In this document: one piece after another, positions 3,644 through 34,317 of the stretch
Numbering within the stretch: position 1 is the first letter of the stretch
Layout: each line of letters starts with the position of its first letter
Assembly: GCA_965287045.1 (NCBI GenBank)
Contig: OZ336903.1
Coordinates: 806,001 to 870,000 of the forward strand
From: Carcharhinus amblyrhynchos
Taxonomy: Eukaryota
DNA length: 64,000 nucleotides
Direction: 5' to 3'
Position numbers and translations under genes: made by a program
The notes under the pieces: model-generated
What the model was told of the DNA's origin: nothing
The model's database searches: none
Seen by the model: only the letters and a program-made list of their open reading frames with translations

Positions 3644-3669
3644 TTTATTTATCATTTCTAACCTTTATT
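3644..3669 (-). terminator. Two AATAAA polyadenylation signals of the SRCR receptor gene
   Basis: tttatt at 3644-3649 and 3664-3669, about 350-380 nt beyond the predicted stop codon at 4022. Confidence 0.55.
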
Positions 3670-4021: not shown

Positions 4022-4068
4022 TCATATGTCTGAGGACGTCACATCCTGTATTTGTTGATGTCGATGAT
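4022..4068 (-). CDS. SRCR receptor terminal coding exon ([15 protein letters not shown])
   Basis: Acceptor ttttaccgtttcag, phase 1, TGA at 4024-4022, poly(A) signals downstream. Confidence 0.6.
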
Positions 4069-7000
4069 CTGAAACGGTAAAATAAAAATATATAAGAATT
4101 CCAACCATTTCCACAATCAGGTCAACACTTTACAAGTACTTGTGTTATATTCCAGTTCAACTGTCAGTTTCTTTCTATCAAATCCACACTGCACATTCTC
4201 TCTGATACTTTCAATGTAATGTACCACTGAAAATACTGCAGGAAATCACAAAGCAGAAACCATGTGGGACAGGTCGCATCCCTATACTGCAGCCCTCCCA
4301 TTGGAAAATGTCACAAAGTACGGTTTAACATTATAATGTATACTTCGAAGATGAATGGTCGCTGTCCAATGGTGGTTAAGAGCCTGTGCGTATGCCACAG
4401 ACAGCATTATTTTTCTCAGCTGTCATAAAAGGAACGCATAAGACGGGATTAATGCGGATCTCGTGAGTACTGTGGGGGTAAAGAAACTTTTCATGAAATT
4501 TGGGCTGAAAATATCTGTTTTGTTTGATACAATTCGCGGCAGGAACTCAAACCAAATGCCAAATTATTATTTGATTGGCTGGAATTCACTTCAAACCAGA
4601 GCGATTATATTCCACACAAGAGGGCGGGAGGCTGCAGTAATATTCGGAAGTGATAATCAACTCAGAATGTTCTCTCAGCATTGGGATTCCATGAAGGACA
4701 TCAGAAAGTGACCGGGATTTCCTGGTAATATCCATGAAATTCTAACTTTCAACCTGAAGTCAAGTGTGTTCCTTAAATTAGTGAGCAACTAAACATTGCA
4801 GTTTTGATTGGGTGAATTTTAATGGTAGGTTGAAAACAAGTTTTCACAGCCCCTCAGCTGGAACTAGTTCATTAGAAAGCAGGATTAATGTAGCTTCAGA
4901 AGCTATGGGTCAAAAACAGAAAGCTCCTTCACTGTGACCTTGTCTGTAGCTTCCTGAAACATGGAGTCACAAGGACTGAGCTTGATGGAATGATGTAATT
5001 TAACTTAAAGGTTAATTTCAATCCAAATGTCTAATGTAAAGGGTAATTTAAATCTAAATGATAACTACAAGCATGCGGGGATAATTTTAGGAGGAAAGTC
5101 TAAATAGTTTTGCGTTACGTGCATTTGGTATTCAGAAGAATGAGAGGTGATCTCATTGAAACATAGGATTGTAATGGGGATTGACAAGGTAAACGCTGAG
5201 AGGATGCCGTCCCCATTAAAGATTCTAGCGCCAGACTGAGGAGTCTCAGTATTAAGGGACACCAACATAAGACTGAAATTTACAGGATTTTCTCCTCTGA
5301 GTGGGTGGTGAATCTTGGCACAGAGAGCTGTGGAGACAGAGTCCCTGTGCACAGTTAAGGCTGAGATAGGCAGATTGTTGATGAATAAATGAATCAAGGG
5401 TGACGGGGAAGGGGGAAGAGAGTCAATATGAAGAATGTCTGATCAGTCATGATCCGGTGAAGGAGTGAACCAGTCTCGAGGGGCTGAACGGCCTAAGCAT
5501 GTTGCAATTTCTTATTAAATTATTTTATACTGATCCCAATCGACATTCTACGAAGCGGAACAATGAATGATTTATCTCACCCAGAGTGCCGCCGTCACCG
5601 CTAGAACTCTCCGAAGTGAAGATACCGTCAGGGCTCTGGTTCAGCAGCAAGTGCCCACTCTGGGAGTCAATGGTTTCAGTCTCAGCGTCGTCATAGTCTG
5701 TCAAAGCAGGAGCTTAGAGGTAATAGCATTTGATTATAGCAATATATAGCTGAGAGATAATAACAATTAATTAGTAATGAATGACAGTTAGAATCCTACC
5801 CTTAAATGTCTATTACCTCAACAATTATGGGACAGAAAGAAGTGTGTCTCTCATGGTGTGGAAATCACTGAGTTTGGGCGCGAAGAGTTATTAGGCTAAA
5901 TTTTGTCGTAGCATTTTCAAAATTTCGTTTGATATAATAACCTTGCTAATAATTCACCAATCTCATACACCCACACACATTTCACAGCCCAAAATGGCTA
6001 CTGGGAAATGCTAGAACTTTTTTAAAAAAAGTTAAAATTCTTTTTTTTTCGGAAGAAAGCAAACTTCATTTCAATTGCTGCGAAGTACCATAAAACATTG
6101 TTTCAGGCTCAGAAGTTCTGGAACTGAAATTATTCTAAAATGTCTGAGCTACTTGGCGCTGTCATTTCATGGTGTGCACGTCATTATGTACACGTTTGGA
6201 GATTTCAGAAGCTATTTCAGATATTACAGAGTGAGAAGACTCGGAAGGAAATGGTCGGATGTGAACTTCGACCTACCCGGAACACAGGAGGAATCCACTG
6301 CAGGATATTCTGATCCAGGATCCGTGTGTCCCAAACTGTGACTGGTGTAATATTCAATCTGATCGAAGGAGTCAATGCTTGAAGAAACTGGTCAGCACAA
6401 AATAATTGGTTATTAGGCAAATTGTTTGCGGTTGATTCATTACGTTCTTATGATGATCAAGAACGATTCAGAAAGTCAAAGTCGATATCGCAACAATGTC
6501 AACGCCACTGTGACAATGTCCTGACATTTGATCGTGGCACCAGTTTGGGAGAACAGTGAACAGACTGAATGCAGTGGTTTAAGGGGAAGAGCCAGCGCCA
6601 CATTACTGGGGCAACTATGGATGGATTAATGATGTCACTCTGCTTCTGAACAGTCCAATGTGTGAGATATCAGTGAACAGAAAATATTGTAAAGAACAAA
6701 TCTGTTCCGGCTGGGTGAGTGGACAGGGTTTTCTGATACAGAATCTCTTCCCACTTCCATATTGTTTCCCTGCCCTTTATCTCCAGAGATGAAAATCCAT
6801 CAGGAGTGAAAATAACTCATGGAGGTCGCAGGCAAGACACAAGAAAGAGCAGAAATAGTCTAAATTGGAACATTATTTTCATTCTGTTCAGTCATTCTGG
6901 ATGAATCTCAGTCCTCAATACTGCTAACATTCTTGTAAATTATTTTCAAACCTCTCCTGTTTCCTGTAGCCTTTCAATAACATCATGCTCAGACTCATAC

Positions 7001-10000
7001 AATCCACTCCACTATCTGGTTGATTTTTATCTTCACGTTTTGCTACATGTTGATTGTATATAAACGCCACATACTTTGTGGATGCTGGCAATCGCAAAAA
7101 AAAAACAGAAAAAGCAGACAAAGTCAGCCAGGCTGGCATGAAGAAAAGTCATAAAAACGCACTGTTGAACGTGTTTCTCTCTCCAGCCCTTCTGAGATGG
7201 CCAACATTTCCTTCTCTTTTGTTTTCTTTAAAAATGAACCTTGTGTTTGTTTTGGTTTCACTGAACTTTCTCAGATACATTTTGCATCGAGTCATTTTTG
7301 GACCACAACATTTTAGTACATTTTATGAGGTATTTTACTGATATTCGCTAAATATTTTCATGAAGCGGGTTGATGGGTTTTTGATAAGAGAGGGGATTAA
7401 GGGTTATGAGGAGAGGGCCGGAAAGTGGAACTGAGCCACGACAGATCAGCCATGATCTTATTGAATGGCGGGGCAGGCTCGAAGGGCCAGATGGCCTACT
7501 CCTGCTCCTATTTCTTATGTTCTCATGTTCTTATTTCTTTCTCACTGTGTTTTAAATTATCTCTTGCTTTTGTTGACGTTCTGTTTTCAATCGTATGTCT
7601 TATAATAGCAAGTGAGTTAACGTTTTCTGATAATTTGCTTCAGTACTTGTCAGACCAGCAAAATTTACTACCACTTTTAAAATGTGTTTGGAAACATTAA
7701 GATATTGTAAGAAATCATAACCATGTGATCCCAGTACCCATTTGTGTAGACCACCAGTTCTAATCTTCTTCCGACTATATAAACATTTAGCCCATAAATT
7801 AATAGATTATTACAGAAAACTGGTTCTAATTTTAAGATCGCCCCATGATTCTGTACACAGGGAGCAAACACTTGCATCCAATGTAATTTACTGCCTAACT
7901 GATGAATCCTCCTCAGCGAAGCAGTTTTTAAGTGCATTCACTATTGCAACGTATAAACGCAGAAAACGTTTTGGGTCTTGCACTATTCCAATGCAAATGA
8001 CAAGAAAGAAAGAAACAACAAAAACGCAGGAACTTAACTTTGCCAATTTTCTCAAGGGGTAAGTATTTTTCAGGTCTACCCTCAGTAGAATATTGGCCAT
8101 GGATGATAGTTCCAATGAAATGTCATATCACCAATAGTACAACACCTTCTCAGCACTGCAAATCGTGTCAGACTTGATTTCCTGGACCGAATTCTGGAAT
8201 GGAACTTGGACCTGGAAACATCTGAGTCAGAGGCATGATTGTCATGGACTAAAATGGAGCTGACCGTTATATTCTGTTCCCATCCGTTTGTGTATGAGTT
8301 TGTTGTTTCACACACAAATTTTGGACAACTGGAAGAATGCATTTATGGTGTTAATCATAATTTGCCAGTTGCCATTTGTACGAATTTCATGCTGTTATTA
8401 TCTGAGAAAGGTCATGAAAGATGTACTGATTGTTCTTTATAATTTTTGACATGCAGATATATTTTTCTCACTCTGTCGGAATTGGATTAATGTTCCTGCT
8501 AATAATGCTCAGCAGATTGATGTATATTTTCCTAACCACGTTCCTTTTTCCTTTCTAATCATGGTGTCAATATTTGTTCTCCATCAGTAGTGTAGTATTA
8601 CACTCCTTAGTAGTGATTCGGTGTAAAATTGGAATGGTCCGTCTGCTAGAATTTTCCTTTCTTTGCAAATGCATGGATGAAAAAAAAATGATCTTAAAGC
8701 GTTGGGTGCAAATGGCTTTTGTTTTTGCAAATCTACCATCGCTATTCAAATCTTCTGCCATCACATGTTTAAGTGTTATCATGATACAAAGTGCAGAAAA
8801 AAATCTTTAATATTCCTGCCATTGCATTATTTTGCAATTAAAACAGTGCTGGACGAACACATATGAAGTTATTCTGAATTGCCAAACTTATTTCTCCCTT
8901 CATTGGATATCGTGTTAATTTATTTAACAACCAATGATTTTACTGTTTTAATGAACTTTGTCATCTTAACTAATTGTGTTCTCTCTCCTTCATTTTTCGT
9001 CACCTCCCTTATACTGGTTTGCTACCCACAAAAAAACAACACCCCCACCACCCTCCACCCCTCCCCCCCCCCGCCCCCCGCCACCTCCCCGCCCACACGC
9101 GCTATCCTCCTTGTTCTTGTTGTGTAATGTCTTCCATTCGTTTTTTTTTCCTTGCTTTTCAATGAAAATATATGTTTTCCACACGTCGGCTGAAAATCAT
9201 TTTAAAACTTTAAAGTTAAGCAAAAAAAAACAACCTTAATGTACTCCAGACATTTGCCCAGACAGCAGTGATCCTGTAAATCGTATCAGCAGTAACGTGT
9301 TTGATTGATTTATGTTCAATCAAACAGTGTATCCATGGTGTTTTAAAACTGAACCTTGATGGACGAAAGGAGTAGCCTATTTGGAATTTGGAAACAACTA
9401 ATCTGCTCGCTATTTTTACACAGGTGACAAAAAACCCTCTTCAGCAATAAAGGAGATTGGAAATCTAATCAAATCCGTTCATCCTCTAAAACCTATTGAG
9501 GCTTTGTGTCCTTTCTCCTTTCCATTTGAAGGATGAGGAAATGGTGTCATCAACTGACAGTTAAGGGAGGGAAACCTGAAGTTTTCAGCGTAGCTTGGGT
9601 TTGAAATGAAGTAAAAATACAAACCTGAAGCACGGAACTCAGTGGAAACCTTGCCAGGCGGAATGTCATCTATTTCTTCATAAATGGCTTGGTCCAAACC
9701 AGAAGGTGGATCCCTGACGCCTGTTGAAGGTCCTGCTGCAGGGGGATTGAGACTGTTAGTATATTGTTAGATTTGCAATTAGAAATATCGTTCCTCATTA
9801 GCATTAATTTCACATCTCACTATTTGCTGAGGCCAGAATAGAACTAGGCCTGGAGAGTTTTTGTCTTGCTACCCTGGGTCATTAATAAAGTGATGATACC
9901 ACTGTGTCCATCACAAGGGGAACTGAACCATTTTCAGCCCATGTAGGTCGGCAGATAAAATATTGATCACAAATACTCGGTGTGAGTTCAGAGGGAGGCT

Positions 10001-13000
10001 GTAGTTGTGTTTATCTGTTCAAAACTAATGGCGCACAAGGCAATCTTTAACTAAATTCCTTCATCAGTTTTTTTTAACATCGAGCAGATCACCAACTTGC
10101 CACCACACCAAACACGATCGAACAAAACTCTCTCCCGCTCCCACCGCCTGGCATTATGATTTGGAAAGACTTTGCAGCATTATTTTTTTTATTATGTTGT
10201 TGGTCTGCAGTGTTGGGACCGAAAACTAAATCTTCTGTCTCAGAGAGAGGGGCGCTACTCACTGAGCATCCAGCATTGAACCTGCAGTTCTCCAGTATTG
10301 GCTGCGATAGGATGCAGAATTTGCACCGATGATTGTGGAACTTAATTTAAAAAGTATCACATCACATCTCAAAATGGATTGAATTCAAGTAGAGAGGTTA
10401 ACACTGGACATAAATCGCAAAGCATAGGGTTGCAACCAATAGTAAACTGAAATGAAATATAAGTTACCAAATGTTTACCGAAATCAGAGTGCAAATTGTT
10501 TGAATTTAAATTTTTGGTCTATTCTTAGAAGAAAAAATGAAGTGTATTTCGAGTCTCAGAGACGAGTGGATAAACCAGGAATATAAATGTGGATACACAC
10601 TCACTTAAATGTTATATTTCTGTCTTTGCCAAGCAGCTTGGAAGAAACCATTGGCTGGATAATTTGTTTCTCACATGGACAGGAGACATTCTGCGGGAAC
10701 CAGCGTAGAAGAGAATCCCCTCGGGGGTTTGGAACAGTTATTGATGTTTCTGTGTTAGTTCAGGGATATGATTCGAGCCTTACCATTCATTGTTGATCTC
10801 CTCCTCATTACTGCCAAAAGGGCGATTAATTCACAGATCAACAGGACACCGAGTGATATGCAGATCATCAGAGGGATGGAAGTGTTTTCACCATCATGAC
10901 CTAATGAAATATTCAAGAAAGTATTTTCAGGTCAAATTCCATATTGTTTCTTAATGCTTACATGATTATCAATTGACAAAACGAAGCCAATGTTAACATG
11001 TCCCAGTTATGCATCTTAACATAAAATTAACATGAGTAGTTAATACTATTTATTAATAAGAAATACCTGAAGGTGTTGGTGATAAATCCGGACCTGATGA
11101 AAATATGGGAAACAAGACACAATTAATTGGGTTGATTGTTAGAAAGATATCTGAAAACATGATTCAAATTCAGAAAACAAGGACGGACCACCGTCACACA
11201 GTCCCAAACCACACCGCTCAGTGGGACACTTACCGGAACAAATCACACTGGCATCTTCCTTGTGATCACAGTCAGACTGAGCTAATGATGAAGGGCAGTC
11301 AAACAGAAAGGATTCACTTGCGGTACACTTCACCTCATCCAGCCAGATAGTACCGGTACCCTGCCCAAAAGCGGCCCCTCCTGTGGCCTCGAGAGCAGAG
11401 CCACAGCCCAGCTGTCTGCAGGCAACACTGGCTTCGTTCATATCCCAGGAATCATCACACACCGTGCCCCAGGCTCCATTACACCATATCTCTACTCTCC
11501 CGGAGCAATTCGTGTTACCTTCAGCCAAACGCAAACTTTGCCCTAAATTGGTCAAACAAAAACATATCAGTCATGGCATAGCACAAATGACGAATCAAAT
11601 GCATTTGCTAAAAATTAAGAATGTGAAATAACCTGATTCTCGCTTGCAGCCGTTGAGATTTTCCTGTTCTTTCTTTGGTGTGTCTCCCCCTGTTGATAAG
11701 ACAAACATGTTGACTCCATGAGCTACATCAATATTTCAAATCTCACCTGTAAGCAGAATGATTGATTGTGTTACCTGAACAAACGACACCTGCATCTTCC
11801 CCATGATCACAATTGTGTTGACCCCACGGGTCTGCCTGGCACTGCCAAAGGGTCGACTCGTGTGAAAGGCATTCCATCTCATCCAACCAAATCGGTCCTG
11901 ATCCTACTCCGAATGAACCAGCATAATAGTCGATGGAAACGAGTGTGCCGCAATCTAACTGTTTACAGATCACTGCTGCATCATGCCGATCCAGTTTCTC
12001 CGAGCAAACTGTTCCCCATGTCCCATTATAGAGCACCTCCACTCTCCCCTCACAGCGATGTGTTCCCTTCACCAAACGCAGCTCTTTGTGCTCTGTCAAT
12101 GAGATATGAAATATCCAGTTGATTCAATGCTCAATTCTGTATTCAGAGTGCAATGTATCACATATGTTGTGTCAGTTAAATTCATTGTTTACCGGTATTA
12201 ATTTACAACGGTCACAGAGAAAAAAAAATACACAACTGAAATCAAACGATATAACCACGAGTAAGCAACATTGAATTTCAATCGAAATATTTGTGTGATG
12301 GAGAAAAAGAGGAGTTTTTGTGCTAATTGGGGAGAGTTTGGTAAGTAGATCTCTGGATACATGTGACATAAAGGGTTCAAAATGCACTGATATAGGAAAT
12401 GAATGACAAAGAGACAGAAGGGAACACATCAAGACAGAGTGGACCACTCATTTGTCAATATTTCAGTCCAGAACAAACAGCACAAACAGGGTTTGGCCGA
12501 ATGACCTTCGTAACCGCTGTTCACATGCTATTCAGGAATATATCTTACTTATGAAGCTTCATTAATAACTGCAGAAAATGGGATCATTACCAGAGCACAT
12601 AATGTTCACATCTTCTTTATGATTACAGTCGTGATTACCCCACAGTGCATGGGGACATTTCCAGAGAAATGATTCATTCCCAGAACATTGCAGCTCATCC
12701 AACCAAATTGGCTCTGCGTCTGGTCCAGTCGAAGTCGGGAGAGGAAGCCACAATGCATTTCCACAACCCAGCTGCTTGCAAACCACATCCGCGTCTTTCA
12801 GATCCCAGGAATCATCACAAACTGAGCCCCAGATCCCATTGTGATAGATCTCCAATCTCCCAGCACAAAGCGTTCCACCGCCAGAGAGCCTCAGCTGCCT
12901 ATGTCCTAACAGAAAATATACAGTGTCATATTATACTTTCAATATATTAACCTCATTGCTAAATTAAAACTATTGGATAATATAGATCTAAATGAGAACC

Positions 13001-16000
13001 TATATGTTCGGTGGTGTTGACAAGTAAATGAATCTACGCAGTACAACACCTGTTTCATGTTACACAGAATAATAAATGCGGATTTTACATATATTTCAGA
13101 TATTCCTAACACCCACTCAAACGTTCTACGGACTGTACCTAATCCATTCTCTGTGGTATGTTTTGCTTTAACATATAAGAGTGTAATTCGACTAATTAGT
13201 TGTTCCACAAACAATGTTTTGAGCAGACAGTTTATACTTTGTCAAGGTTTTGTTTTGCCATGCATATTTAAACAGGTTTCTGTAGCTCACACTTATGTAT
13301 TGGACAAATCAGAAAATGCTGCAAATATCAACTAGCTTAGCAGCATCTGAGGACAGTGAAATAGACTTAACCTTTCAGACACAGACCTGTCCTGGAAATT
13401 GCTCCTAAAATCTCCAGAAGGCCCTTGTTTACTCAATAAATCTAATTAAAAAAGAATCCGATTACTTACTCATCCAAAAACGTGAATGCAATCAAACCAT
13501 TTCTAAATAATCGTGCACCTTCCAGTTCAGCAGCAGAGACCCACCGCTCGTACAAAGCCGGACTCACTCCCACCCGCTCCCCTCCTACATCACCACCAGC
13601 CCTGACATTTGATCTTCATTGGATTCTCTTCATTCAATAAAACAAAGCTTCAAAATATCATGTTCTTCATCAAATGCATCATTTCTCTCCACCCCTGATC
13701 CCGCTCCAACAGAACAAAGAACAAAATCAGCCTGGGAAAAAGGCCCTTCGGCCCAACGAGCCCGCGCCGCCATCTCAACACCACCAGTCCACCTCTCTAC
13801 CCACGACCCCTATCTAATGTTTTATGGCCATCCAGATTGAGGGAAACTGGTTTAGGAACAATTTACTCCTGCCAATCAGCCTAACAGCACATCTTTGGGG
13901 TGTGGGAGGAAACCGGAGCACCCGGAGAAAACCCACGCAAGCACGGGGAGAATGGGCAAACTCCCACTGACACCGGCCCAAATCCATGTGTCTGCACAGC
14001 AATCAGCGATAGTCACTGAGCTGTCGTCTTGCCCAGTATCTGGTCCAGTTTAGGCACACACTAATGACATGAAGCACTAGGCCAATCTCGAACAACCAAG
14101 AGTCAACCCCACCAGCCCAAGCGTCCATGATAACCAGCGCCTATGAATCCATTTAAGGGATTCGATTTCCTTCACATCTGGCACTATTTGCAGCAAATCT
14201 TTCTACTCTCTTATTTAATGGACATGACGTTCTCGACAGGGTTAAAAGATTGGAATTCCAGCCTTAAACATTTCACCTTTTTTCTTTCGTTATGCTGTTG
14301 AAACCCACTCCTCTGATCAAAACATTAGCACCTATTGCCGATATTAACTTTATTTGTTTTGGCCCCAATTGACTGCCGGAAGTTACCCAGAGATGAGCAA
14401 AATTGTTGAAGGAGTCAAATTTAGTCAAACCAACTGTTTTTTTTTTCCCGTGACGTCCTGTTTTATACCTCGGCGTCAGTGACAAATATCTCACCTATGT
14501 TCTTTCCACGAACAAGTGAAGTACATTCCCAGTTGACCAAGATTATAATTTCCCCTTTTCGTTTCTAGAAAAGTGACCTGTTCATTCACCTGAGCACAGA
14601 ACCCCTACGCCGATGCTGTCACTGCGTTGCGGGTTCAATGTGAATGTGCTGCACTTCCGGAGATGCGACTCGTCTCCTTCACACTGGACATCATTCACCC
14701 ACACCGGCCCTTCACCCTCTCCGTACTTTGAATTGTTATAGGCGGTTACCGCTTCGCCGCAGCCCAGCTGTCTACAGGTCACATTAGCGTCATTCAGATC
14801 CCAGAGGCTGTCCTGCACTCTGCCCCAGCTGTGGTTGTAGTAAATCTCCACTCGCCCATCACACCGACTTCCGCCATTCATCAATCTCAGTGACCAGTTT
14901 TCATCTAGGCGAAGAAAAGCATTTAAAGCAGTGGTTACAGTGCAACAAATTAACCCGTTTTGACGTCAGCTTTCACCAGTACATTTCTGTTTGTTAAAAG
15001 GTAAAGGATGTTCCTGAGAGGAGGTTCAGCACAGTCAGGCAGGAGGATGAACAACCGGAAGTCCTACTCTGTGTCGAAAGTAAATTCATTTTTCAGCAAA
15101 GAGATAACATATGTTTGAATAACTCAAGAATGGGTTAGCATTTGGGAGGACAAATGTGGGAACATCCTCATTAATCCAGTAACACGTGTTAGTGAGTGAT
15201 TTAAATGGGAGATAATGGAAATTATCCAGCTGAGGAGATAGTGCTAGAGGTTGGATATTCATTTCCTGCAATATGGGCAACACTTCTGTGAAAGTTTATC
15301 TGGGCATGCTGGGATACGCTGCAACCCATCAAAGCAGGGACAGAGGGTATTCTGGCTGTGGGAATATTTGTTTGAAATAATAGTTTGATAGACAAAAATC
15401 ACTTTTAAATAAGCTAACTATTAAGAACACCCGTGAGACAATTTTCAGAAAAAAAAAATGTTTCAGAAGCTTCCTGGAGTTTCATATTCTGAGAAATCAA
15501 AGGGTGAAAGTTAATAATGGTAGGAAGGATAGAACATAGAACAGAGAACATTACAGCGCAGTACAGGCCCTTCGGCCCTCGATGTTGCGCCGACCAGTGG
15601 AACCAATCTAATGACCCTCTAACCTAAAGTATTCCAATGTTATCATCCACGCCCTTACTACCCTCTGAATAAAGAACCTACCTCTGACATCCGCCCTATA
15701 ATTACCACCCCTTAATTTAAAGCTATTGTCCCCTTGTGTTAGCCATCACCATCAGAGGTAAAAGGCTCTCATTGTCCACCCTATTCAATCCTTTGATCAA
15801 TTTGTAAGCCTCAATCAGGTCACCTCGTAACCTTCTTCTCTCCAATGAAAATAACCTCAAGTCCCTCAGCCTTTCCTCATAAGGCCTTCTTACCATACCA
15901 GGCAACATCCTGGTAAACCTCCTCTGCACCCTTTCCAATGCCTCCACATCTTTCTTACAATGCGGCGACCAGAACTGTACGCAATACTCCAAGGCGGCCG

Positions 16001-19000
16001 CACCAGAGTTTTGTACAGTTGTAACATGACCTCACGGCTCTGAAATTCAATTCCTCTACCAATAAAAGCTCACACACCGTACGCCTTCTTAACAACCTTA
16101 TCAACCTGGGTGCCAACTTTCAGGGAGCTATGCACATGTACCCCGAGATCTCTCTGCTCGATACTGTTCTACAGATAGTTTTCCAAAGAAAGGCCAGGTT
16201 AGAGGCTTCACTGATAAGCTCGCGCCAATGGAATGAAACAGCAATGTCTATCCAAGTGTGAAGTTGGCCCTTTGACAGGAAATAATAATTTGGTCCGTTA
16301 ATGTGGCTTCCTTAGGGGAATCTGTGAAGACCTGCTGTACCTGAGATATGTTAAAGACATTGACTGTGGTGTTAAGGGCAAGGCTGCAATTTTCAAATGC
16401 CGTGCTGGTGGTATGCACAGGCAAATGGCAGGGTCATCTGATGTAGGGAAATCGGTATAGCCTCATATTGGCGGGAAGGAGGGCAACGAATATCTTCCGT
16501 GAAGTTTTTTTTCACAGCTGCAGGATGTCCCAAAGCCCGGAATAGTCATCAATGGGCTTTGCGAGAATTGCAGTTACTTCGGATATGCATCAAGCAAAAC
16601 AGCGAGTTTGCACATACAGAACACGCGGATACAGCACTGTGATAAGTTTAAGTTTATTTATCAGTGTCATAAATAGGCTTATATCAGGATCGATACAGTG
16701 TTTTATGTGATGCTGAGAAAGGGGTAAAACTGGACTGGACACGGGGGAACTATTCTCTTGAGTTACTTAATGTTATTCAGATGGGTTTTTGTTTTAACCT
16801 CCAAGTTTCATGGCGACTTCAAAATCCCCAGGGTTCTGCGAAAAACAATTGCATCGGAGAAAATGTTCTCATTGGTGAGGGTACAGAGAGCGGGAAAGTC
16901 CTGGGAAGGGAGCGGGTGACGTTGAAGATAATTCACAAAATGCCAATAGTGACTGAATTGAAATCAGCTGCAGTAAATGGTTAGGTTTGAAAATGAATTG
17001 TGTGAGTTTATAGTGGAAGAAGGACAATCAAAACTTTTCCGAGAATTGAAGAATTATGTGAAGGGAAAAATAATACAAATCTGTGAGGATATGCGTGGAT
17101 TGTGACTGGGTGAGGTTCACTTCAATTCTGCACAGGCTCGCGGGTCGAATGGATTTTTTTGCTTACTACACCCAAGTGTTGTTGTTCTCTGAGTGTCTGC
17201 ATTATGAGGACTCACCCGAGCAAATGACACTGGCATCATTTTCATGTGAGCAGTTAAACTCTTCCACTGATGAAACCGGACACTCCCACAACAGGGATTC
17301 ACTTCCGTGACATCTGTAATTCTCCTTCCATATTGTCCCATTTCCCTTTCCAAAGGCTGCACCTCTCGGGATTTTCTCTACCACTCCACACTGAAGATGC
17401 TCACAGACCACACTGGCGTCTTGGAAACCAAAGTAAACATCACAGAGCGTCCCCCAGTGTTCTCCATGCGGCACTTCCACCCGGCCGGAGCACCTGTCCT
17501 TTCCACCAACCAATCGGGGTTCACTGTTTCCTGTTTCAGATCAGAAAAACACAAAGACTCAACTAATTTGTTCAAAAACAATACTTCCACATCTGAGCAG
17601 CCACATATATGTATTTCCCAAAAGTGCCAAATTATTAAGTGAAAACGAATGAATGTGATAAATGGCGCTTCAATGCAAAATCACACTGACATCGTTCCTG
17701 TGGTGCACTCGGCCCGATTTACTGGAAGAAGAGGCAGTGCGTTTCATTTAATAATTAAATCTTTTTCATCAAGTTCAATACATGTCCACTACTATTCTCT
17801 TCAGAAGCCGCGTTTAGTCTTACAGCGATTCATCTGGAACATTATTCACCATCCGCCCATAAACTTAACGGACTGCTGGTTTATCTGGAAAAATCTGGGT
17901 ATGATCGCCCCCTAACGCCTGCTGATGGGAACTACCCCCATGTGCAGCAGGCGAACATGAATCGAAAGAAATTTGGTTTAATTTGCCCAGGAACTTTCCA
18001 ACTGATAGACACCAAAATGATCGTGTTAATGTTGTTTCTCTTTTGGTGCTGAAACGTGTTGAGAATGAACGTTCTCAAACGAATTCAACCAGAAATAAAA
18101 CGATGGATCTCCGAATGTCTAAATGGTGATGAGCAAACACCATTCGAGTTCTCATTGTGGGTTCATGTACACAGGAGGCTAAAACATTAAGGTCAGATCG
18201 AAAACGTAATCAAAACTCCTCAGGAATTTTAGCATTTCTATTTGGGCGGTTAGAATGGGAAGGGGAAGAGTTTCTGCTTCAAGTTTCAGTAACTTTGTTC
18301 AGTCCGTATCTGGAATGCGATAAACAATTCAGGGAAATGCAACCTTGAAAGGATCTCCTGTTCTGGAAAACAGTCCAGCGAATGTCTCCCAGGCTACTGG
18401 TTCCTGAGTCTGGACAACATCTTCCTCTATCAGTTTACACTGTGTGAAATCTGCCTGAAGCTGCAGCAGCTTTAAATATTAAAACAACTAATCTCCCTTC
18501 ATTTTATTCTGGAGAAAGTACCGACTGCCGCACATTTGTTTAACATCCAACCTCCTGAACAAATTGATCCAGCACAATTTATTCAAATACAACGGAACAC
18601 TCCACCAAAAACATTTCTGATTTCTCTCCCTGACAGACTGGAAAGGTAAACTCCGTCCGCAAAAAAAAACAAGAACACAAGGGGAAAATCAGATAAAAAC
18701 AGCTGGAATTCGTCAGGTTCAGGGAGTGAGAAGGAGACAAGTTTCCAAATAGGATCAAACATTTGGAGGGGAGGATTTACATGACAGCTATTAAAACGAC
18801 TCGCCTGGAGAGACAGGGGATATCCAGCCAGTCTCCTCTCATACAAACTCAGAAAATGCTGGAACAATTCAGCAGCTGTGGCAGAATTAGTGGCGAGGGA
18901 AGAATAGAGGGAAGTTTCCAGTCCGCGTGACTCTCCTCCAGACCCTTCCCATCCTCACTCCGCTCTTGGAACACCTTCAATCTGCCCACTGATTGCTGCT

Positions 19001-21249
19001 CTGAAAGTAGCCGAAGTGACTGGATAAGCGCTCTATGGCCTCCGCAATCAATAGTCAGTAAATGTCAAACACATGGACCGAGACACCCGGATTTAATTCA
19101 GAGACAGCAGCCAATTCTGACCGAGTGCCGAATGATCCGGACTCCCCTTAAATGTACCTCTGTACACAGCCAACCCATCAAACCATGCCTGATCTTTTGA
19201 CTCTGCACAGGCAAGACCGGGACAGATTAGTCCGCCCGGGAATCTTTCTCGCTCTCCTCCCAGGTCTGTCCGCCCTCTCCCCCACCGTGGTTGCTGACAG
19301 GTCCGTCTCTGACTCCAGGCGTGTGGTTGTGTCGGATGAGACATTGGGGGAGGGGTGGCGGTGGAGATTTCGAAGGGTTGGGGGATCGGGATGCCTCCGA
19401 CCGTATCTCTGGGGTTCGAACCACATTTACATTTGTGGGTATAATTTCTGCACTTTGAACGAAAAAAAAGGGCATTTACAATCGGATGATTTGAATTTAA
19501 GCTAAAATTGCAGAATAAACCAAACGCTGCGGACAGATGAAGGTAAACCGTTGCTCAGCAGAAGCCTGACTGTTGTCCAGGATTTGCTCTGTGTGGCCCT
19601 GGAATGCTTCATTATTTGTTGAATGGTGAACGGAACTGAACAGTGAGGAACCAGGAGCGAACAACTTCTCTCCTGAACATCGCTAACAGCAAGCCCTCAG
19701 CTCAAGGACACAGCGGGCCTGTGCACGGTTGTGGTAATTGTTAATCACTCTCATTGCTGTTACTTTATTATAAACTAGAATCCTGGAGTTAATGTAACAA
19801 CAACTCTATTTATAGAATATTAAAATTATTCGCCAGTCTCTTTACGACTGTGTACAGTCTCAGAATACTTAATCCACCCTTTCCCGGAGAGCAGGCTGTA
19901 GATGATGGACTTATTTTGTACCTGAGCAAATCACACCGGCATCATAGGAGTGCGGCAAGAGAAAGTACAGAAAATCACCCCATGGCTTTGAGCGACATTC
20001 CCGCAGGGCGGTCTCGGTCCCTTCGCACTCAACACCATACGTCACAATGGGTCCGGATCCTTCCCCAAAGTGAGCCCCGCCTGGTGCAGAGAGCGCGGTC
20101 CCGCAGCCCAGCTCCCCACACACAACATCGGCGTCCCGCTGGTCCCAGTCACTACCAAACACAGTCCCCCACTGTCCCCTGTAGTGAATCTCCACTCTCC
20201 CAGCGCACCGACTCTGCCCATTCGCCAGTCTCAGCTTCACCGCCTCTGTAAAATACAGAAATAAACCAACAGTTATTGGCCAGCTGATGCAACAGGTCAG
20301 AGAGGAATCAAGCCAAATAAGGAGTGTGTCTAAGATCTCAATAAACACGGGGATAACATGAAATAAAGAACAACGAACAAAGACATTGACAGCACAGGAA
20401 CAGGCCCTTCCGCCCTCCTCGCCCGTACCGACCTGACTGCGCGACGTTACTAAAAACCTCTACCGTTCTCGGGACCATATTCCTCTATTCCCACCCTATT
20501 TATTTACTTGTCAAGACGCCCCTTAAACGTCACTCCGGTATCCGCTTCCACTCCCTCCCCCTGAGACATTGCAAGCGGAAGCGGGAATATGGATTGACAG
20601 TGGGAAACAGCCGCAAATCAGTTGGAAGTTGGAAACATCATTCGGCTGCGTCAGGCAGGAGTGTGGATGGGCGCTTACTTGATTCAATCCGTACAACTCA
20701 GGGCTGTTATGGTCCGCGATCCACCACGTTGACAGGGCTAATATAGTGGAATCCCAATCCTAGCATGGACTCGATATCAACCACCAATGTCGAACCAGGT
20801 GGTTCGCCCTGCTGCAACCGGCTGAAGTGGACAGTCAGGTCGTCTGCAAACCTTCCCGGGGCTATGAGATGCGACGAGTTTTCGGCGGAACCCTAATACA
20901 CGGGGGGTCTAAGGGCTTCATATTGCATTTCATTTCAGCGCTGGCTGGGAACTAGATAAGTAAACATTTATTTCCATACGGCAGTGGGAAACCTTTGCCT
21001 CTCACCCTGCTCCTCGGGGATCTAATTTCTAAATTAGGGAGCAGAACTTAAACATTTACGTGAAAACATTGCAAGAACATTTTCCTTCACAACTGACAGG
21101 CAGACATTGAACCGAATCATTGAACACAAAGATACTGAAATTGTCTCCGGGATTTATCATTCAGTTGGATGGATTAGTGCAGTAAAATATCAGATATGAA
21201 CATGGAGGGCGATTACCTGATGGATCAGCCTGGCTGTTCCCTGGTCTGC
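4022..21249 (-). CDS. Multi-exon SRCR group B membrane receptor, WC1/CD163-like (6 SRCR domains, TM, Tyr-motif tail); signal exon not found
   Basis: Phase-1 exons with GT-AG ends join in frame: 21217-21249, 19922-20245, 17216-17530, 14590-14904, 12591-12905, 11775-12092, 11633-11689, 11234-11542, 11067-11093, 10784-10900, 9625-9735, 6277-6387, 5581-5697/5712, 4022-4068. Confidence 0.85.
5090..5520 (+). mobile_element. CR1-type LINE 3' fragment (decayed)
   Basis: agaagaatgagaggtgatctcattgaaaca (RRMRGDLIE) and gaggggctgaacggccta tail. Confidence 0.75.
5581..5712 (-). CDS. SRCR receptor cytoplasmic exon ([14 protein letters not shown]...GDGGTL)
   Basis: Two in-frame acceptors (5712 or 5697), donor gtgag, YDDA motif. 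Confidence 0.75.
6277..6387 (-). CDS. SRCR receptor cytoplasmic exon ([20 protein letters not shown]...SCVP)
   Basis: 111 nt, open in phase 1, ag/gtagg boundaries. Confidence 0.7.
7362..7535 (+). mobile_element. CR1-type LINE 3' tail
   Basis: gatcagccatgatcttattgaatggcggggcaggctcgaagggccagatggcctactcctgctcc followed by ttcttatg-type tail repeats. Confidence 0.8.
9625..9735 (-). CDS. SRCR receptor first cytoplasmic exon ([37 protein letters not shown])
   Basis: NAGNAG acceptor (9735/9732), donor gtttgt, WC1-like YEEID motif. Confidence 0.85.
10784..10900 (-). CDS. SRCR receptor transmembrane exon ([39 protein letters not shown])
   Basis: Hydrophobic ~23-aa segment followed by RRR stop-transfer; ttag/gtaag boundaries. 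Confidence 0.85.
11067..11093 (-). CDS. SRCR receptor 27-nt stalk exon (GPDLSPTPS)
   Basis: ttttcatcag acceptor, gtatt donor, phase 1-1, P/S/T-rich. Confidence 0.6.
11234..11542 (-). CDS. SRCR domain 6 (d'-like)
   Basis: [30 protein letters not shown]...[12 protein letters not shown]; 309-nt exon. Confidence 0.95.
11633..11689 (-). CDS. Inter-domain linker exon ([19 protein letters not shown])
   Basis: 57 nt, acag/gttatt boundaries, phase 1-1. Confidence 0.7.
11775..12092 (-). CDS. SRCR domain 5 (e-like)
   Basis: [30 protein letters not shown]...[14 protein letters not shown]; 318-nt exon. Confidence 0.95.
12591..12905 (-). CDS. SRCR domain 4 (d-like)
   Basis: [32 protein letters not shown]...[12 protein letters not shown]; 315-nt exon. 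Confidence 0.95.
13710..13975 (-). mobile_element. HE1-type SINE (decayed)
   Basis: gtgggaggaaaccggagcacccggagaaaacccacgca core and aggcccttcggccc tail. Confidence 0.75.
14590..14904 (-). CDS. SRCR domain 3 (c-like, six Cys)
   Basis: [30 protein letters not shown]...GVGVLCS; lacks Cys2 and Cys7; 315-nt exon. Confidence 0.95.
15529..16160 (-). mobile_element. CR1/HER1-type LINE, 5'-truncated
   Basis: ORF2 C-terminus [31 protein letters not shown]...RRLRGDLIE and (atagaac)n tail. Confidence 0.95.
17216..17530 (-). CDS. SRCR domain 2 (b-like)
   Basis: [45 protein letters not shown]...[12 protein letters not shown]; 315-nt exon. Confidence 0.95.
19922..20245 (-). CDS. SRCR domain 1 (a-like, six Cys)
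   Basis: [34 protein letters not shown]...[21 protein letters not shown]; 324-nt exon. Confidence 0.95.
20368..20560 (-). mobile_element. CR1-type LINE 3' tail
   Basis: acagcacaggaacaggcccttc tail and tcctctattcccaccctatt...cccttaaacgtc. Confidence 0.65.
21217..21249 (-). CDS. 33-nt exon preceding SRCR domain 1 ([11 protein letters not shown])
   Basis: tttcatttcag acceptor, gtaatc donor, phase 1-1, in frame with the domain-1 exon. Confidence 0.65.
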
Positions 21250-25600: not shown

Positions 25601-28579
25601 CTTTCCCTTCCATCAGTCACCAACATTTTTATTGTGAAATCTCTCTCTCTCTCTATATATAATATATATACACATACACACATGCTAATATTTTATGTCA
25701 GTGAATTCTCAACAGACATCAGGAAACTTTCAATCAATAATAACTCACAGTTGAGAAGCTGCAATGCAATTAGAGTCAGGAAGGAGCGCAGCATCGTCCC
25801 GACTGTCGGTTACTGCGATCAGACTTGACTATTCACCGAGTTTTGTACACCGGTACCGGGCTGTCCTTCCAACACTTTCTAAAACACCAAACGCTGCAGG
25901 AATGAATTCTTCGTTCAGAAAATAATATTTCCTCCCATCTGGTTAATTGATGCTCCCAAGTGTGAAATGTAAATTGCCGTTTGATAAAAGATACCAATGA
26001 CAGTTATATCCACCTCCTTCCCCTGTGCGGCAAATGAGGCCTACAATTTTGATAAGGAAGTGAGTCACTAACCCAGCAGCGGATCATCGAATCATCATAT
26101 CTTACAGCACAGACACATACGATTGAAAGAAATGTATATGGAAAATGTTTGCATATCATATTCGGCCTGCACTGGATTATATACATTTTTTGCACTGTTT
26201 TACCACTTTTTGCAAAGAACAATTTCCGAGGAACAGTTGAAGGCCTTGGAGATGACAAGAGATAAAATTTCCAGGTTAAATCCAGGGGAAATGGACTGCT
26301 CTGATGTGGAAAAAATGCATAAACTGCATGTCAGCTCCAATCACTTTCCTCAAGAAATCTGTGAGTGAATGTTCTCACCGACAAGTCCAATCCAATCGGC
26401 TGTTTAAGAGTCCTATCGAGTCCAAATACAGCCTGTATTTACAACCTGATTTTCACATTTTCACAAAGGAAAAGTGTAGACATTTCAGTCCAGCAGCAAC
26501 TCAAGCAAGATGTTCAAATCTGTAACATATGGAATCGAAAAAAAAAGTGTTTTTTTTTCCTCGAGTGGAAACACAACTTTTTCTCCTTGCTCTTAGAACA
26601 ACCTCCAAAGTTTTTACTGTCTTCTATTTGGAGAACAATATTCTCGAAAGACAGAAAGCCCAATTTATGAATGTTTTTAATATGTAACATCTCCATGCGG
26701 AAATCGTAGATTAAATGTTTCTGTTAAAGGACTGTTATTCTCTATTTGAACTTAATTACTTTTTGAACATATTTTAGAAGCGCCATTACATATCTGAGCG
26801 ATTTTGCTGCCTCCGCCCAGTTTAGAGTGACAGAGTTCGGCGGGACTGTGCCGCGCAGAAATATTTCTTATCTGCTGGACAAATGTAATTTTATTTTCAT
26901 GATCAACTTGAGATTCATTTGAGTGAATGTCTTTACAGAGCCGCGTTTAGAGAAGGGAAGCCCACAAGCATATTTGTTCCATACAGGAAGAAATGATTCC
27001 TGAGAAGCTAAGCAATTGGTATTGAGTTATATTCTGTGTCATCCCGAAGCAGCTCACTGTCTGCGCAGCGTCAGAACACTCGCTGCGCATTTTCCTGTGT
27101 TGCTGAACCGACAGGAAGCACCTGGCCTTGTGGTCAGGTCTCTGCTCGCATGTTAGTCGCTGCTACACTTTAACATTGACAGATTGCAATTGCACATTGG
27201 AACTTGTGTCGGGCAGTGCACTGGGACATGTAAAACTTCAAGTACCTTCGTGAATTCACCAGCAGCATGTGAGAGAACGGCATCTACAAATAGTTATCGG
27301 GGACTCCGGGAATAGTGTGTCGCTAAACCTTATTAAATTTGACTTGTGTTCAACAAATTTGAAATCAATGGTAATGAGATTAAACCGATTGCCTGGGCTG
27401 CATAAATCAATATACTACACATAGACCTTTGCCACGCTTAGACACAGAGGGTTCACCATTCAGCTCCATATCTATTATCCCTCAGTGCTTCCCCCGTGAA
27501 CACAGCAGACCGGGTGCACAAGTTCACTTATCGTGCAGAGAGGAGAGCAGATAAATACTTGGGATAATGGGTACAGCTCCTCCTTTATTGGCATAACACC
27601 ATGACAGTTTTTGGTCCATTTCAATGTATTTCAGTTCTCAAAAAATGTATCCAATCTATGAAATGATAAACTACAAACACGGAGTGATTTCCATGTGAGT
27701 CATTTTGTGACGTTGGCATCCCTGACTTCCTTTATTACTGAGAGGGCGGCTTAAGCATTGTAGTCACTTTGTGATGCGACAAAGTCTTAAGCAGGTACTG
27801 GGTGCCATGGAAATTACAGTTTCAGATATTGATATGTTATCCAGGATGGAGACTTATTGCGGGTTGGTTATTTAGGAAAAACTGCGGGTATCGTGTCAGT
27901 TTTTGGAGGTTGAATTAACAAGCATTGGTTGGTCTTTGATATTATTAGCATTCATCTTTCCATTTGGCAGCACCTGTCTGCAAAATATATTTTTCCAGCT
28001 AAAATGTCTTACGTCTCACATCTACAAGCAAAAATATGTTGGTTATTTATTTTTTCTTTAACAAGTGTCCAAATACCTTGGTGAAGAATCTTATTTACCT
28101 GAGCATTAACTGAAATCCCAACATATCTGCATTAATTCCAATACCAGAACTCACAGGTTAACACTCAGTGATTGAACCATAGGATCCCTATTTTGCAGCA
28201 GAAGGTCATTCAACGTATTGAGTCTGAACTGACTCTCCAACAGAGCAGCTTCCTCGTGCGTTATCCCCGTGACTCCACATTTTTTTTACGTTGCTAAAAC
28301 CCTAATTAACACATCTTGTGACACGTAGAGTCAATTAGTAATCGACCTATCCCGCCCACCTTTGCACTGTCTTTTTTTGGAATGGTTCAATTCCTTTGTA
28401 CAAAGGAACGTTCAATGTATGTCTCTGTCACCTACATCCGTACCACTATGCGGAGATGTCGGCGATGGACTGGGGTGGGCTCTAAAAGAAGCCTCACAGC
28501 ACCAGATAAAAGTCCAACATGTTTATTTCGTATCAATTTACTTGTCAATTTACCCTGGATCCAATGCACATTTAGCTTA

Positions 28580-30650
28580 TCGATCAGTGTCTTTTGTCTT
28601 TTGTTATTCAGTGCCTGACACCTGGCTGGAGTCACTCTGTCCTTTCAGATTCAGTGTCACAGGCCTGGCTGGGGTCAAACTGTGATTTGAGATTCAGTGT
28701 CAGAGACCTGGCTGGGTTCGATCTTTTATTTGAGATTCAGAGTCACAGACCTGTCTGGGTTGATTCTGTCCATTAAGATTCAGTGTCACAGCCCTGGCTG
28801 TGTTTGAACTATTATTTGAGATGCAAGTCTCATGCCTGGCAGTCTCATGCCTGAGGTTCATTGTCATAGGCCTTTATTGCTTCACTCTGTCTTTAAATTC
28901 AGTGTCACAAACCTGGCTGAATAAACTGTGTCCTCTCAGATTCAGTGTTCCAGGCCTGGTTCTGTTCAATCTGTCATCTCAGATTCAGTGGCACATGTCT
29001 GGTTGTATTCACACTGTGTCCTTTGAGTTTCAGTGTCAGAGGCCTGGCTGGAATCACTGTGTCTTTTGAGATTCAGTGTCACAGGCCGGGCTGTGTTCAC
29101 TCTGTCCTTTGACAATCGGTTTCACAGGCCGGGCTGGGTTCACTCTGCCTTTTCAATACAGTGTCAATGAACTGGTTGGAATCACTGTGCCCTTTTCAGT
29201 TTGAGTGTCACAGGTCTGGCTGTATACATTGCATCCTTTGACATTCAGCCTCACAGGCCTGTCTGTGCTCGAAATGTTATTTGAGATTCAAGCTCTCAGA
29301 CCTGACAGGGTTCACTCTGTCCATTGAGATTCAGTTTCACACGCCTGGTTAGGATCATAGAACATAGAACATAGAACATAGAACACTACAGCACAAACAG
29401 GCCCTTCGGCCCACAAGTTGCGCCGATCACATCATCACCTACCAACCTACAGACCTATCTATAACCCTCAATCTCATTAAACCCCATATACTCATCCAGA
29501 AGTCTTTCAAAAGACCCCAGCGAGTTCGCCTCCACCACCACTGACGGCAGCCGATTCCATTCACTCACCACCCTCTGAGTGAAAAACTTACCCCTAACAT
29601 CACTTCTGAACCTCCCTCCCCGCACCTTAAATCTGTGTCCTCTCGTAGCGACCATTTCAACCCGGGGAAATAGCCTCTGAGAGTCCACCCTATCTATTCC
29701 TCTCAACATTTTGTAAACTTCTATCAGGTCGCCTCTCAACCTTCGTCTCTCCAGGGAAAAGAGTCACAGCTCCCTCAACCTAACTTCATAAGGCATGCCT
29801 CCCAGTCCAGGCAACATCCTTGTAAATCTCCTCTGTACCCTTTCAATAGCTTCTACATCTTTCCTATAGTGAGGCGACCAGAACTGCGCACAATACTCTA
29901 AATGAGGCCTGACAAGGGTCTTATAAAGTTCCAGCATTACCTCCCGACTCCGAAACTCAATCCCTCGATTAATGAAGGCCAGTACACCATACGCCTTCTT
30001 GACCACCTCCTCCACCTGCGAGGCCGATGTGCTCCTTGAGATTCAGTGTTACAGGCCTGGCTGCGCCCTTTCAGATTCAGTGTCACAGGCCCGGCTGGGA
30101 TCCGTTCATCTGTTGTGATTCAGTTTCCCAGGCCTGGCTGTCTTCAAACTGTTACTTGTGATTCAGTGTCACAGACCTCGTGTACACATTGTGTCCTTTG
30201 AGATTCAGTGTCACAGGCCTGGCTGGATTCACTTTGCCATTTGCGATTCAGTGTTACAGGTCTGCCTGGGGTTACTGTGTGATTTGAGATTCAGTGTCAC
30301 AGGCCTCGCTGGATTCACTCTGTCATTTGAGATTCAGTGTTACAGGTCTGGCAGGAATCACTGTGTATTTTGAGATTCAGTGTCACAGGCCTGGCTGCGT
30401 TCGAAATGTTATTTGAGATTTAGCGTCACAGACTGGGCTGGGTTCTCTCTGTTCTTTGAGATTCAGTGTCACAGATTTGGCTCTGTTCACTCTGTCCTTT
30501 CAGTTTCAGTGTCACGGGCCTGTTTGGGTTCACTGGTTCCTTTATGTTTGAGTGTCAGAGGCCTGGCTGGGCTCACTCTGTCCTTTGAGATTTAGTGCCA
30601 CATGCCTGGCTCGGTTCACTGTGTCATTTGAGGTTCAGTGTCACAGGCTG
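28580..30650 (+). repeat. 43-bp tandem satellite (tgagattcagtgtcacaggcctggctgggttcactctgtcctt), interrupted by a LINE
   Basis: Unit starts recur at 30201, 30244 and 30287 (43-nt period). Confidence 0.95.
29355..30028 (-). mobile_element. CR1/HER1-type LINE, 5'-truncated, inserted in the satellite
   Basis: [46 protein letters not shown] and RGDLIEVYKMLRG...FFTQRVV; (catagaa)n tail. Confidence 0.95.
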
Positions 30651-33680: not shown

Positions 33681-34317
33681 TATTCTGCTCTGAACCTGCT
33701 CTGTCTAACTCTCTCCCTCTCTCTCTGTCTTTCCCTGCCTGAAATTAAATTGTCACAATTCACATTGGTGTTTTCCTTCACATTTTATTGAAAGATGAAA
33801 TATAGATCGGAATGTTTAGGGACAGAGAGAGGGTTTGGGGTGCCAGGATTGGTAAGAACATTGGAGAGACAGAGACAGGGAAATTCTAAACCCCCCCATC
33901 CAAATATAAATTCCCGGGAAAGAGAGGGAGGGAGTCAAATAGAGTCACACAGCACAGGAACGGGCCACTGAGTCCACCAGGTCTATGCTGGCCATCAAAT
34001 CCCAATCTATACTGCCCCCATTCCCCAGCACTTGCTGCAGAGCCTACGATGCCTCAGCGATTAAAGTGCTTGAATTTACCCGACCCCGTTTCAACTTGCT
34101 GTTTTCCATCGAAACACTTTGTGGCCCGTCAGCAAGATTTTGTTTTTTTAAAAAAAAACGTCTCCCCACTGTTGCAGTGCGGGCAGAGGCCACAGGTCCC
34201 GTGTGTACACAGGAAGATCCCACAGCAGCAGCAGCAGCAGCAATGTGAACCAAGATCAGATGGGACACAGTCCCTCCCATCACACCCTCACACTCTCATC
34301 TGCTGTGAGCCCCCTCC

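Follow-up and report, generated by a model that had tools for sequence, protein, structure and literature searches.

A predicted shark receptor gene of the CD163c/WC1 family with an n-class third domain in Carcharhinus amblyrhynchos

[quoted passage not shown] Ruminant and swine WC1 follows the order a-b-c-d-e-d' and also occurs in 11-domain forms, CD163A (M130) has h-i-j-k-b-c-d-e-d', CD163c-alpha/SCART1-2 has m-l-b-c-n-d-e-d', and hybrid genes of chicken and turtle run a...c-n-d-e-d'. The papers cited here by PMC number are drawn on in part. According to the portions of Herzig 2010 (PMC2906472) that we use, n is diagnostic of CD163c and a of WC1, chicken genes carry both, n does not occur in the WC1 of cattle or swine, domains are commonly shuffled in this family, and WC1 and CD163c genes can be traced to the amniote ancestor. 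Here we describe a gene in a 64-kb stretch of the shark Carcharhinus amblyrhynchos (assembly GCA_965287045.1, contig OZ336903.1, positions 806,001 to 870,000 of the forward strand), called the window below. As judged from its sequence, this gene is almost certainly an intact shark member of the CD163c(SCART)/WC1 family, encoding a group B SRCR type I membrane receptor. Its predicted domain order is a-like, b(/c), n, d, e, Cys linker, d'.

Six-frame translation of the window placed all motifs quoted in a first-pass annotation of this DNA on the minus strand and within the span proposed there: WGTVFGSDW at 20171 and an 11-letter motif at 19973 (both in domain 1), CDVYF...CEHLQCG in domain 2, a 13-letter motif and LWQCQADPW in domain 5, AIYEEID at 9688 and DYDDA at 5698. 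The gene model, predicted from splice signals and reading frame, comprises 14 exons (25794-4022, minus strand). All 13 introns are GT-AG and all are of phase 1, and the open frame of 843 codons has no internal stop. The predicted product consists of a signal peptide, six SRCR domains, a Cys linker, a single transmembrane helix and an acidic tail of 135 amino acids (aa) with five tyrosines. The exons, from 5' to 3' of the gene, are as follows.

25749..25794, minus strand: exon 1, ATG and signal peptide (predicted); GTGAGT donor, phase 1; placed by splice signals alone, upstream of the span of the first-pass annotation
21217..21249, minus strand: exon 2, a spacer of 33 nt that follows the signal peptide; in frame, phase 1-1, with AG/GT borders
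19922..20245, minus strand: SRCR domain 1, six Cys, a-like (weak assignment); Pfam 100.5 bits
17216..17530, minus strand: SRCR domain 2, b/c class, with b-like N half and c-like end; best human CD163 match SRCR5 (b), and tree
14590..14904, minus strand: SRCR domain 3, six Cys, n class (CD163c/SCART type); n clade 100/98
12591..12905, minus strand: SRCR domain 4, d class, with the calcium/lysine residues of CD163 SRCR7; similarity and motif
11775..12092, minus strand: SRCR domain 5, e class, eight Cys, VEVLxxxxW; sister to e 97/95
11633..11689, minus strand: 57-nt interdomain exon, one Cys, separating e from d'; AG/GT, phase 1-1
11234..11542, minus strand: SRCR domain 6, d' class, nine Cys, with the calcium/lysine residues of CD163 SRCR9; similarity and tree
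10784..10900, minus strand: transmembrane exon, RRR stop-transfer at its end; hydropathy scan and homologous shark segments
9625..9732, minus strand: tail exon 1, AIYEEID; NAGNAG acceptor, 9735 also in frame; YEEI conserved
6277..6387, minus strand: tail exon 2, IEYYT; top splice-scan candidate with a sevengill shark match, missed by the first-pass annotation
5581..5697, minus strand: tail exon 3, DYDDA at its start; AG/GT, phase 1-1; aligns to mammalian YDDA
4022..4068, minus strand: last coding exon with TGA stop (predicted); placed by splice signals alone

Exon 1 had the highest hydrophobicity among four ATG-to-strong-donor candidates located between 21260 and an assembly gap (848 N, about 34310-35160) that lies upstream of it. 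A hydrophobic open reading frame (ORF) at 25228 was rejected as exon 1 because of a stop and the lack of a donor. At the other end, an AATAAA occurs at 3649, beyond the last coding exon. Pfam SRCR matched all six domain exons at 94-118 bits (cut-off 26). A hidden Markov model of vertebrate and invertebrate SRCR domains, run over six frames of the 64-kb window, detected exactly these six domains, the next hit having an E-value of 0.84; no seventh SRCR domain or remnant was found in the window, which holds one copy of the gene. The domain exons measure 309-324 nt and are of phase 1-1. Each encodes one domain, as do the exons of SRCR group B proteins, whose domains have 100-110 aa and 6-8 Cys, and the membrane-proximal d-e-d' followed by one transmembrane helix agrees with the CD163/WC1 family. 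Domains 1 to 6 contain 6, 8, 6, 8, 8 and 9 cysteines, respectively. Domain 1 lacks Cys2 and Cys7, as had been noticed before, and domain 3 lacks the same pair; the ninth Cys of domain 6 lies at about 11480. The Cys-containing linker reported before domain 6 proved to be the separate 57-nt exon at 11689-11633.

For classification of the domains, letters were assigned from the orders in the relevant parts of Herzig 2010 (PMC2906472). Homologs were collected with domain 5, taking the best 120 of 2471 matches ranked by summed score, which biases the set to long multi-domain proteins; no shark protein was among these best 120 of 2471. From them 1587 domains were extracted, and 12 cassette-bearing proteins (sheep WC1, a serow CD163A-WC1 fusion model, a mammal-like record, echidna, three turtles and five teleosts) were used, together with an outgroup of 11 proteins that consisted of DMBT1 and further multi-SRCR proteins from cat, birds, reptiles, fish, lamprey, clam and sea cucumber. 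After removal of domains below 90 aa and of near-copies within a protein, 205 reference domains remained, in a set without mammalian CD163c/SCART, bovine WC1 or swine WC1 sequences. The main IQ-TREE tree had 86 rows (79 references, a horn shark domain and the six window domains) and 104 columns, and a smaller one 46 rows (39 references and the same seven domains). Support values are given as bootstrap/SH-aLRT, and topologies were compared by the approximately unbiased (AU) test. A FastTree analysis of 211 rows gave the same placements as IQ-TREE. Best-hit similarity was not relied on for classification, since almost all domains find their top match in the d class, which evolves slowly.

Domain 3 is where the predicted order departs from that of WC1. 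Together with its horn shark homolog it fell in the n clade (100/98), and its placement with c was rejected (p = 0.011, 86 rows). It bears W-x-R-V/L in place of W-G-T-V-C, a feature of seven of seven n domains and one of 198 others, and it is a poor fit to c since it lacks Cys2 and Cys7. Against human CD163, its score with c (68.0 bits) ranked fifth of nine, and the ESM Atlas returned generic SRCR cluster names only. An n domain without Cys2/Cys7 directly before d-e-d' is the arrangement of CD163c-alpha/SCART. The order a-b-c-d-e-d' given in the first-pass annotation therefore fails at position 3, while its letters for domains 2, 5 and 6 held. Domain 2 grouped with b (99/91) inside a b+c clade (99/98), and its best match among the nine human CD163 domains was SRCR5 (b, 110.7 bits). 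Domain 5 was sister to e (97/95) and carries an e motif present in 14 of 17 e domains and none of 188 others, although its score against human CD163 e (61.0 bits) ranked eighth of nine; both this motif and W-x-R-V/L were drawn after the sequences were seen. Domain 5 also contains VEVLxxxxW, reported as the bacteria-binding motif of DMBT1, which is common in generic SRCR domains (24/81 outgroup domains). Domain 6 grouped with amniote d' (97/92) and matched human CD163 SRCR9 best (d', 132.9 bits). Domain 4 matched SRCR7 best (d, 122.6 bits) and took no settled position in the main tree because d is not monophyletic. Domain 1 grouped with the a domain of sheep WC1 and two turtle a-like domains (89/83), within a group that includes CD163A h, i, j and k (92/95). 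Its six cysteines had been read as the mark of an a domain. Loss of both Cys2 and Cys7 occurs, however, in eight of the 205 reference domains, spread over five classes, and five turtle and echidna a-like domains retain both; therefore, six Cys are not diagnostic of a. On these data the class assignments appear strong for domains 2, 3, 5 and 6, depend on similarity and motif for domain 4, and are weak for domain 1. Neither of the two clusterings that had been named beforehand as speaking against a WC1-type cassette was found: a single clade of all six window domains was rejected (p = 1e-4), as was a grouping of all six with DMBT1 and lamprey domains (p = 5e-5; both on 46 rows).

The transmembrane segment and tail provide evidence of a second kind. 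Aligned with those of other proteins they gave z = 61 for sevengill shark, 31 for whale shark, 17.5 for turtle, 9.8 for echidna and 8.4-10.3 for three other mammals, and none of 200 shuffles reached the score for any shark, turtle or mammal tail. Teleost tails gave z = 3.1-8.8. The tails of three unrelated SRCR proteins from birds and reptiles, in which the motifs are absent, gave 0.7, 0.9 and 3.9, and z values of weak tails are inflated because transmembrane segments raise the score. The order transmembrane segment, YEEI, YY, YDD is kept across the shark, turtle and mammal tails. YEEI itself recurs in the two shark proteins, sevengill and whale shark, as well as in turtle and teleosts. The IEYYT exon is nearly identical to a segment of P0125, the protein of sevengill shark, and aligns with LQYYTG of turtle. 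A homolog search with the AIYEEID exon matched none of six candidates. In the portions of Herzig 2010 used (PMC2906472), the tails of WC1 and CD163c share a Y-(Q/E)-(D/C/E)-(I/L) motif and are described as having no similarity to the CD163A tail. The shark YEEI fits this motif at the aligned position, and the YREM of the CD163A tail is absent from the window tail, whose motifs are YEEI, YY and YDD. By this alignment, the TM-YEEI-YY-YDD tail is judged homologous to the turtle and mammal tails.

The closest named relatives are proteins of horn, whale and sevengill shark, in agreement with the cartilaginous fish origin deduced earlier from the letters alone. A domain-3 search among short proteins gave three hits out of four candidates, of which the only named one was a Heterodontus partial protein (XP_067909634, 74% identity). 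An exhaustive search with the transmembrane exon gave two proteins (E 2e-15 and 1e-5), the partial models of Rhincodon (XP_048450055) and Heptranchias (XP_067857569), with identities of 76% to domain 5 and 74% to domain 6. These two models have a near-identical transmembrane segment and tail and keep e-linker-d'-TM-YEEI(-YY), the transmembrane, YEEI and IEYYT exons following in the same order in the sevengill protein; the three shark RefSeq models differ from the present gene in that all are partial, automatically named M130-like or DMBT1-like, and none has the whole domain order. For domains 1, 2 and 4 the best non-shark identity in the tree set was 53-65%. A Cys linker also occupies the place between e and d' in WC1 of sheep and in proteins of echidna, turtle, teleosts and whale shark. 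Like the present gene, the whale shark protein P0124 combines the single linker Cys with a ninth Cys in d', and the two may form a disulfide. P0124 itself contains three near-identical d'-TM units, two of them with e and linker, in one model on a 10.6-kb contig, which may be tandem paralogs or an assembly artefact. Many bird and reptile proteins named DMBT1-like (P0003, P0010, P0036, P0059 and others) consist of 12-16 generic SRCR domains in an array anchored to the membrane, the tail being short and without YEEI in P0010, P0036 and P0059; such proteins are a separate family under a misleading name.

Compared with CD163c-alpha/SCART1-2 and the chicken and turtle hybrids, the gene shares n-d-e-linker-d', a six-Cys n, the YEEI motif and the lack of a c-d linker, and like the bird WC1-CD163c hybrids it begins with an a-like domain. 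Unlike CD163c-alpha/SCART, it has one domain for b and c, no m or l, and only two domains before n. With ruminant and swine WC1 it shares a six-Cys first domain, b, d, e, Cys linker and d', one exon per domain, and YEE(I/L) and YDD tail motifs, whereas it has n for c at position 3, no detected 32-aa c-d linker, and one copy in the window. It resembles CD163A in its b, d, e and d' classes and in the calcium/lysine residues of SRCR7 and SRCR9, and differs in having no i-j-k haptoglobin-binding arm, one domain before b, an e with eight Cys and a WC1/CD163c-type tail. Teleost proteins named M130-like or DMBT1-like (x-b-c-n-d-e-d') have the cassette, the Cys linker and, in eel, loach, catfish and knifefish, TM-YEEI-YDD; unlike the shark gene, those retrieved by a search that favoured long proteins have separate b and c and 14-17 domains. 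A tree of concatenated b-d-e-d' from 13 cassettes follows the species tree, separating amniotes from teleosts and the window gene (95/95) and joining mammalian WC1 with CD163A (88/92). The window gene lies outside the latter split and is therefore co-orthologous to the family rather than a WC1 orthologue, being no closer to WC1 than to CD163A. Membership in the CD163c/WC1 family, proposed in the first-pass annotation, was upheld by domain tree and tail. As far as these trees indicate, mammalian WC1, CD163c and CD163A are jointly its co-orthologues. Within-lineage gene conversion, which is noted in the parts of Herzig 2010 used (PMC2906472), could give the same species-tree pattern.

Several results weigh against this classification. 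The alignments span only 104 columns, and the n class is anchored on turtle and teleost domains that lie between c and d and lack Cys2, as n is defined in the parts of Herzig 2010 used (PMC2906472), with no mammalian n sequence. Placement of domain 1 with teleost pre-b domains (p = 0.24) and, on the 46-row set, of domain 3 with c (p = 0.07) was not rejected by the AU test; nor was that of domain 5 with DMBT1-type domains (p = 0.14; 0.36 on 46 rows) or with d (p = 0.17, 46 rows). By raw similarity domains 1, 3 and 5 are generic, their best CD163 matches being d, d and i, and DMBT1 scores as high as or above CD163 for these three, so raw similarity is no classifier there. Two of the five teleost tails are weak against shuffles (z about 3), and one of the unrelated tails, that of a turtle, reaches z = 3.9. 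Finally, YEEI also fits the YxxPhi endocytosis signal.

The best overall explanation, and in our view a probable one on sequence grounds, is a shark CD163c/WC1-family receptor with a clustering base and YEEI signalling. The receptor would sit on a leukocyte, most likely a T-cell subset, and its outer domains 1-3 would bind microbial or stress ligands. The d-e-d' base would then cluster receptors via calcium/lysine contacts, as in CD163, and Src-family kinases would phosphorylate YEEI, which would recruit SH2 proteins and amplify a neighbouring activating receptor such as the T-cell receptor (TCR). Phosphorylated YEEI is a ligand of Src-family SH2 domains. In CD163, the calcium sites of the oligomer comprise Asp745/Asp746/Asp784/Glu785/Asn807/Glu812 and Asp955/Asp956/Glu1022, with Lys811 and Lys1021 (PMC12279954, in part). 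Mapped through alignments with human CD163, these residues are kept in domains 4 and 6 except that Asn807 is Asp, and the DD+K+E set, present in both domains, occurs in 14 of 32 d/d' references and none of 173 others. WC1 is described as binding Leptospira through its SRCR domains, clustering with the gamma-delta TCR and being phosphorylated by Src-family kinases (PMC8356672, in part), and phosphorylation of YEEL as required for WC1 co-stimulation (Herzig 2010, PMC2906472, in part). A CD163-like gene marks a tcrg/tcrd cluster in cod (PMC9276791, in part), which by analogy raises the odds of a T-cell role for the shark gene. A lymphocyte co-receptor or pattern-recognition mechanism is mildly favoured, and a restriction to gamma-delta cells would be doubtful.

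A myeloid endocytic scavenger like CD163A, with a d-e-d' oligomer, a plasma or microbial ligand and tyrosine-motif internalisation, is an unlikely alternative that nonetheless keeps a real share of the evidence: the oligomer residues of CD163 are retained, domain 1 groups with CD163A h, i, j and k, CD163A and WC1 are equally close to the gene, and two shark relatives are annotated as M130-like. However, the haptoglobin-haemoglobin complex is bound by the SRCR2-4 arm of CD163 (PMC12279954, in part), which has no counterpart in a protein whose b is preceded by a single domain; the tail belongs to the WC1/CD163c type, unrelated to that of CD163A in the portions of Herzig 2010 used (PMC2906472); and the cod homolog is in T cells (PMC9276791, in part).

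The second alternative concerns the absent c domain, which may reflect loss of c, a b-c fusion by deletion, or a single b/c precursor. Domain 2 is composite in its similarity: its first 48 residues give a b-minus-c score of +27.8 and its last third one of -10.5, the latter lower than in any of the 23 b controls and falling among the values of the 15 c controls. In trees of the two halves, the N half was nearest to b and the C half nearest to turtle c, neither being well supported. A horn shark model has an end of the domain-2 type (16/20 residues) directly before n. Placement of domain 2 with c (p = 0.34, 46 rows) and a b+c clade without domain 2 (p = 0.24; 0.41 in another test) were not rejected. 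No c exon, hidden or decayed, emerged from the six-frame model scan, from splice scans or from tblastn searches of two introns with b and c domains (best E 0.08). The splice scans likewise gave no candidate between domains 3 and 4 for the c-d linker exon (32 aa in sheep WC1), though a weak exon could escape them. One reading of these data is that sharks keep an ancestral five-class cassette in which domain 2 is the single b/c precursor, duplicated later in bony vertebrates, and that the receptor is a co-receptor of gamma-delta or NAR-TCR T cells. We hold this combination to be improbable: the best tree places domain 2 with b (99/91), and plain loss of c or b-c fusion by deletion explains the same data. 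If it were true, SRCR co-stimulation of gamma-delta cells would be as old as the TCR.

A WC1-type receptor in the literal sense, with the order a-b-c-d-e-d', is very unlikely. It has in its favour the six domains, also found in swine WC1 and bovine WC1-11 (PMC2681482, in part), a domain 1 with six Cys placed beside the a domain of sheep WC1, the Cys linker, and YEEI with YDD; yet domain 3 is n, a class absent from bovine and swine WC1 in the parts of Herzig 2010 used (PMC2906472), the c-d linker exon was not found in splice scans, six-Cys loss recurs in five classes, and WC1 groups with CD163A instead, and the n at position 3 refutes the literal order. A silent or pseudogenised copy, for which one may point to the first and last exons placed by splice signals alone, is slightly less credible still in view of a frame of 843 codons that no stop interrupts, 13 phase-1 introns with canonical borders, paired cysteines and domains that are 74-76% identical to those of other sharks. 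A DMBT1-like or shark-specific tandem SRCR repeat resembling WC1 by chance, despite the DMBT1 scores of domains 1, 3 and 5, the VEVLxxxxW of domain 5 and the DMBT1-like name given by NCBI to the whale shark relative, is hardly tenable and is refuted at whole-gene level by the two AU tests, the domain order being that of turtle and teleost cassettes and the tail homologous to WC1/CD163c tails.

Elsewhere in the window, an intact rhodopsin-family G-protein-coupled receptor ORF (Pfam 7tm_1) lies at 45134-46138 on the plus strand, with nearest Atlas clusters named "probable GPR139"; an ORF at 39045-39551 has a hydrophobic end and could be its upstream exon. Retroelement remnants at 41775-42290 and 36103-36516 (both plus strand) match Pfam RVT_1 reverse transcriptase and, weakly and below the cut-off, an RNase H-like domain. 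Two related short ORFs without Pfam hits, at 15723-16031 (in the intron between domains 2 and 3) and 29455-29763 (both minus strand), may represent 3' ends of CR1-type long interspersed elements. Two similar intronic elements at about 7390-7540 and 5340-5510 (minus strand) resemble shark short interspersed elements.

Shark relatives of this gene are already in RefSeq under automatic names, and the whole cassette is present in teleost proteins; what is new here is the corrected domain order and the supported deep ancestry of the cassette. The surprise is moderate, as domain loss and shuffling are routine in the family and a CD163-like gene in gamma-delta-like cells of fish has been reported. 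Our literature search found no analysis of the cassette in sharks, most subscription papers lying outside that search. Redmond et al. 2018 (J Immunol), on the evolution of haptoglobin and CD163, may already treat shark CD163-like genes.

The shark gene, its partial homologs in three shark orders and the teleost cassettes together date both the lettered cassette and the YEEI-YY-YDD tail back to the ancestor of jawed vertebrates, so that the suggestion of a cassette and signalling tail older than the split of bony and cartilaginous fishes gains support from tree, tail alignment and homologs. The gene offers a test of whether b and c arose after the divergence of sharks. It also leads to the prediction that the calcium/lysine clustering base of CD163 would be older than haemoglobin scavenging. 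For shark immunology, it may provide a candidate surface marker and putative co-receptor for T-cell subsets, hitherto hidden under the names M130-like and DMBT1-like.

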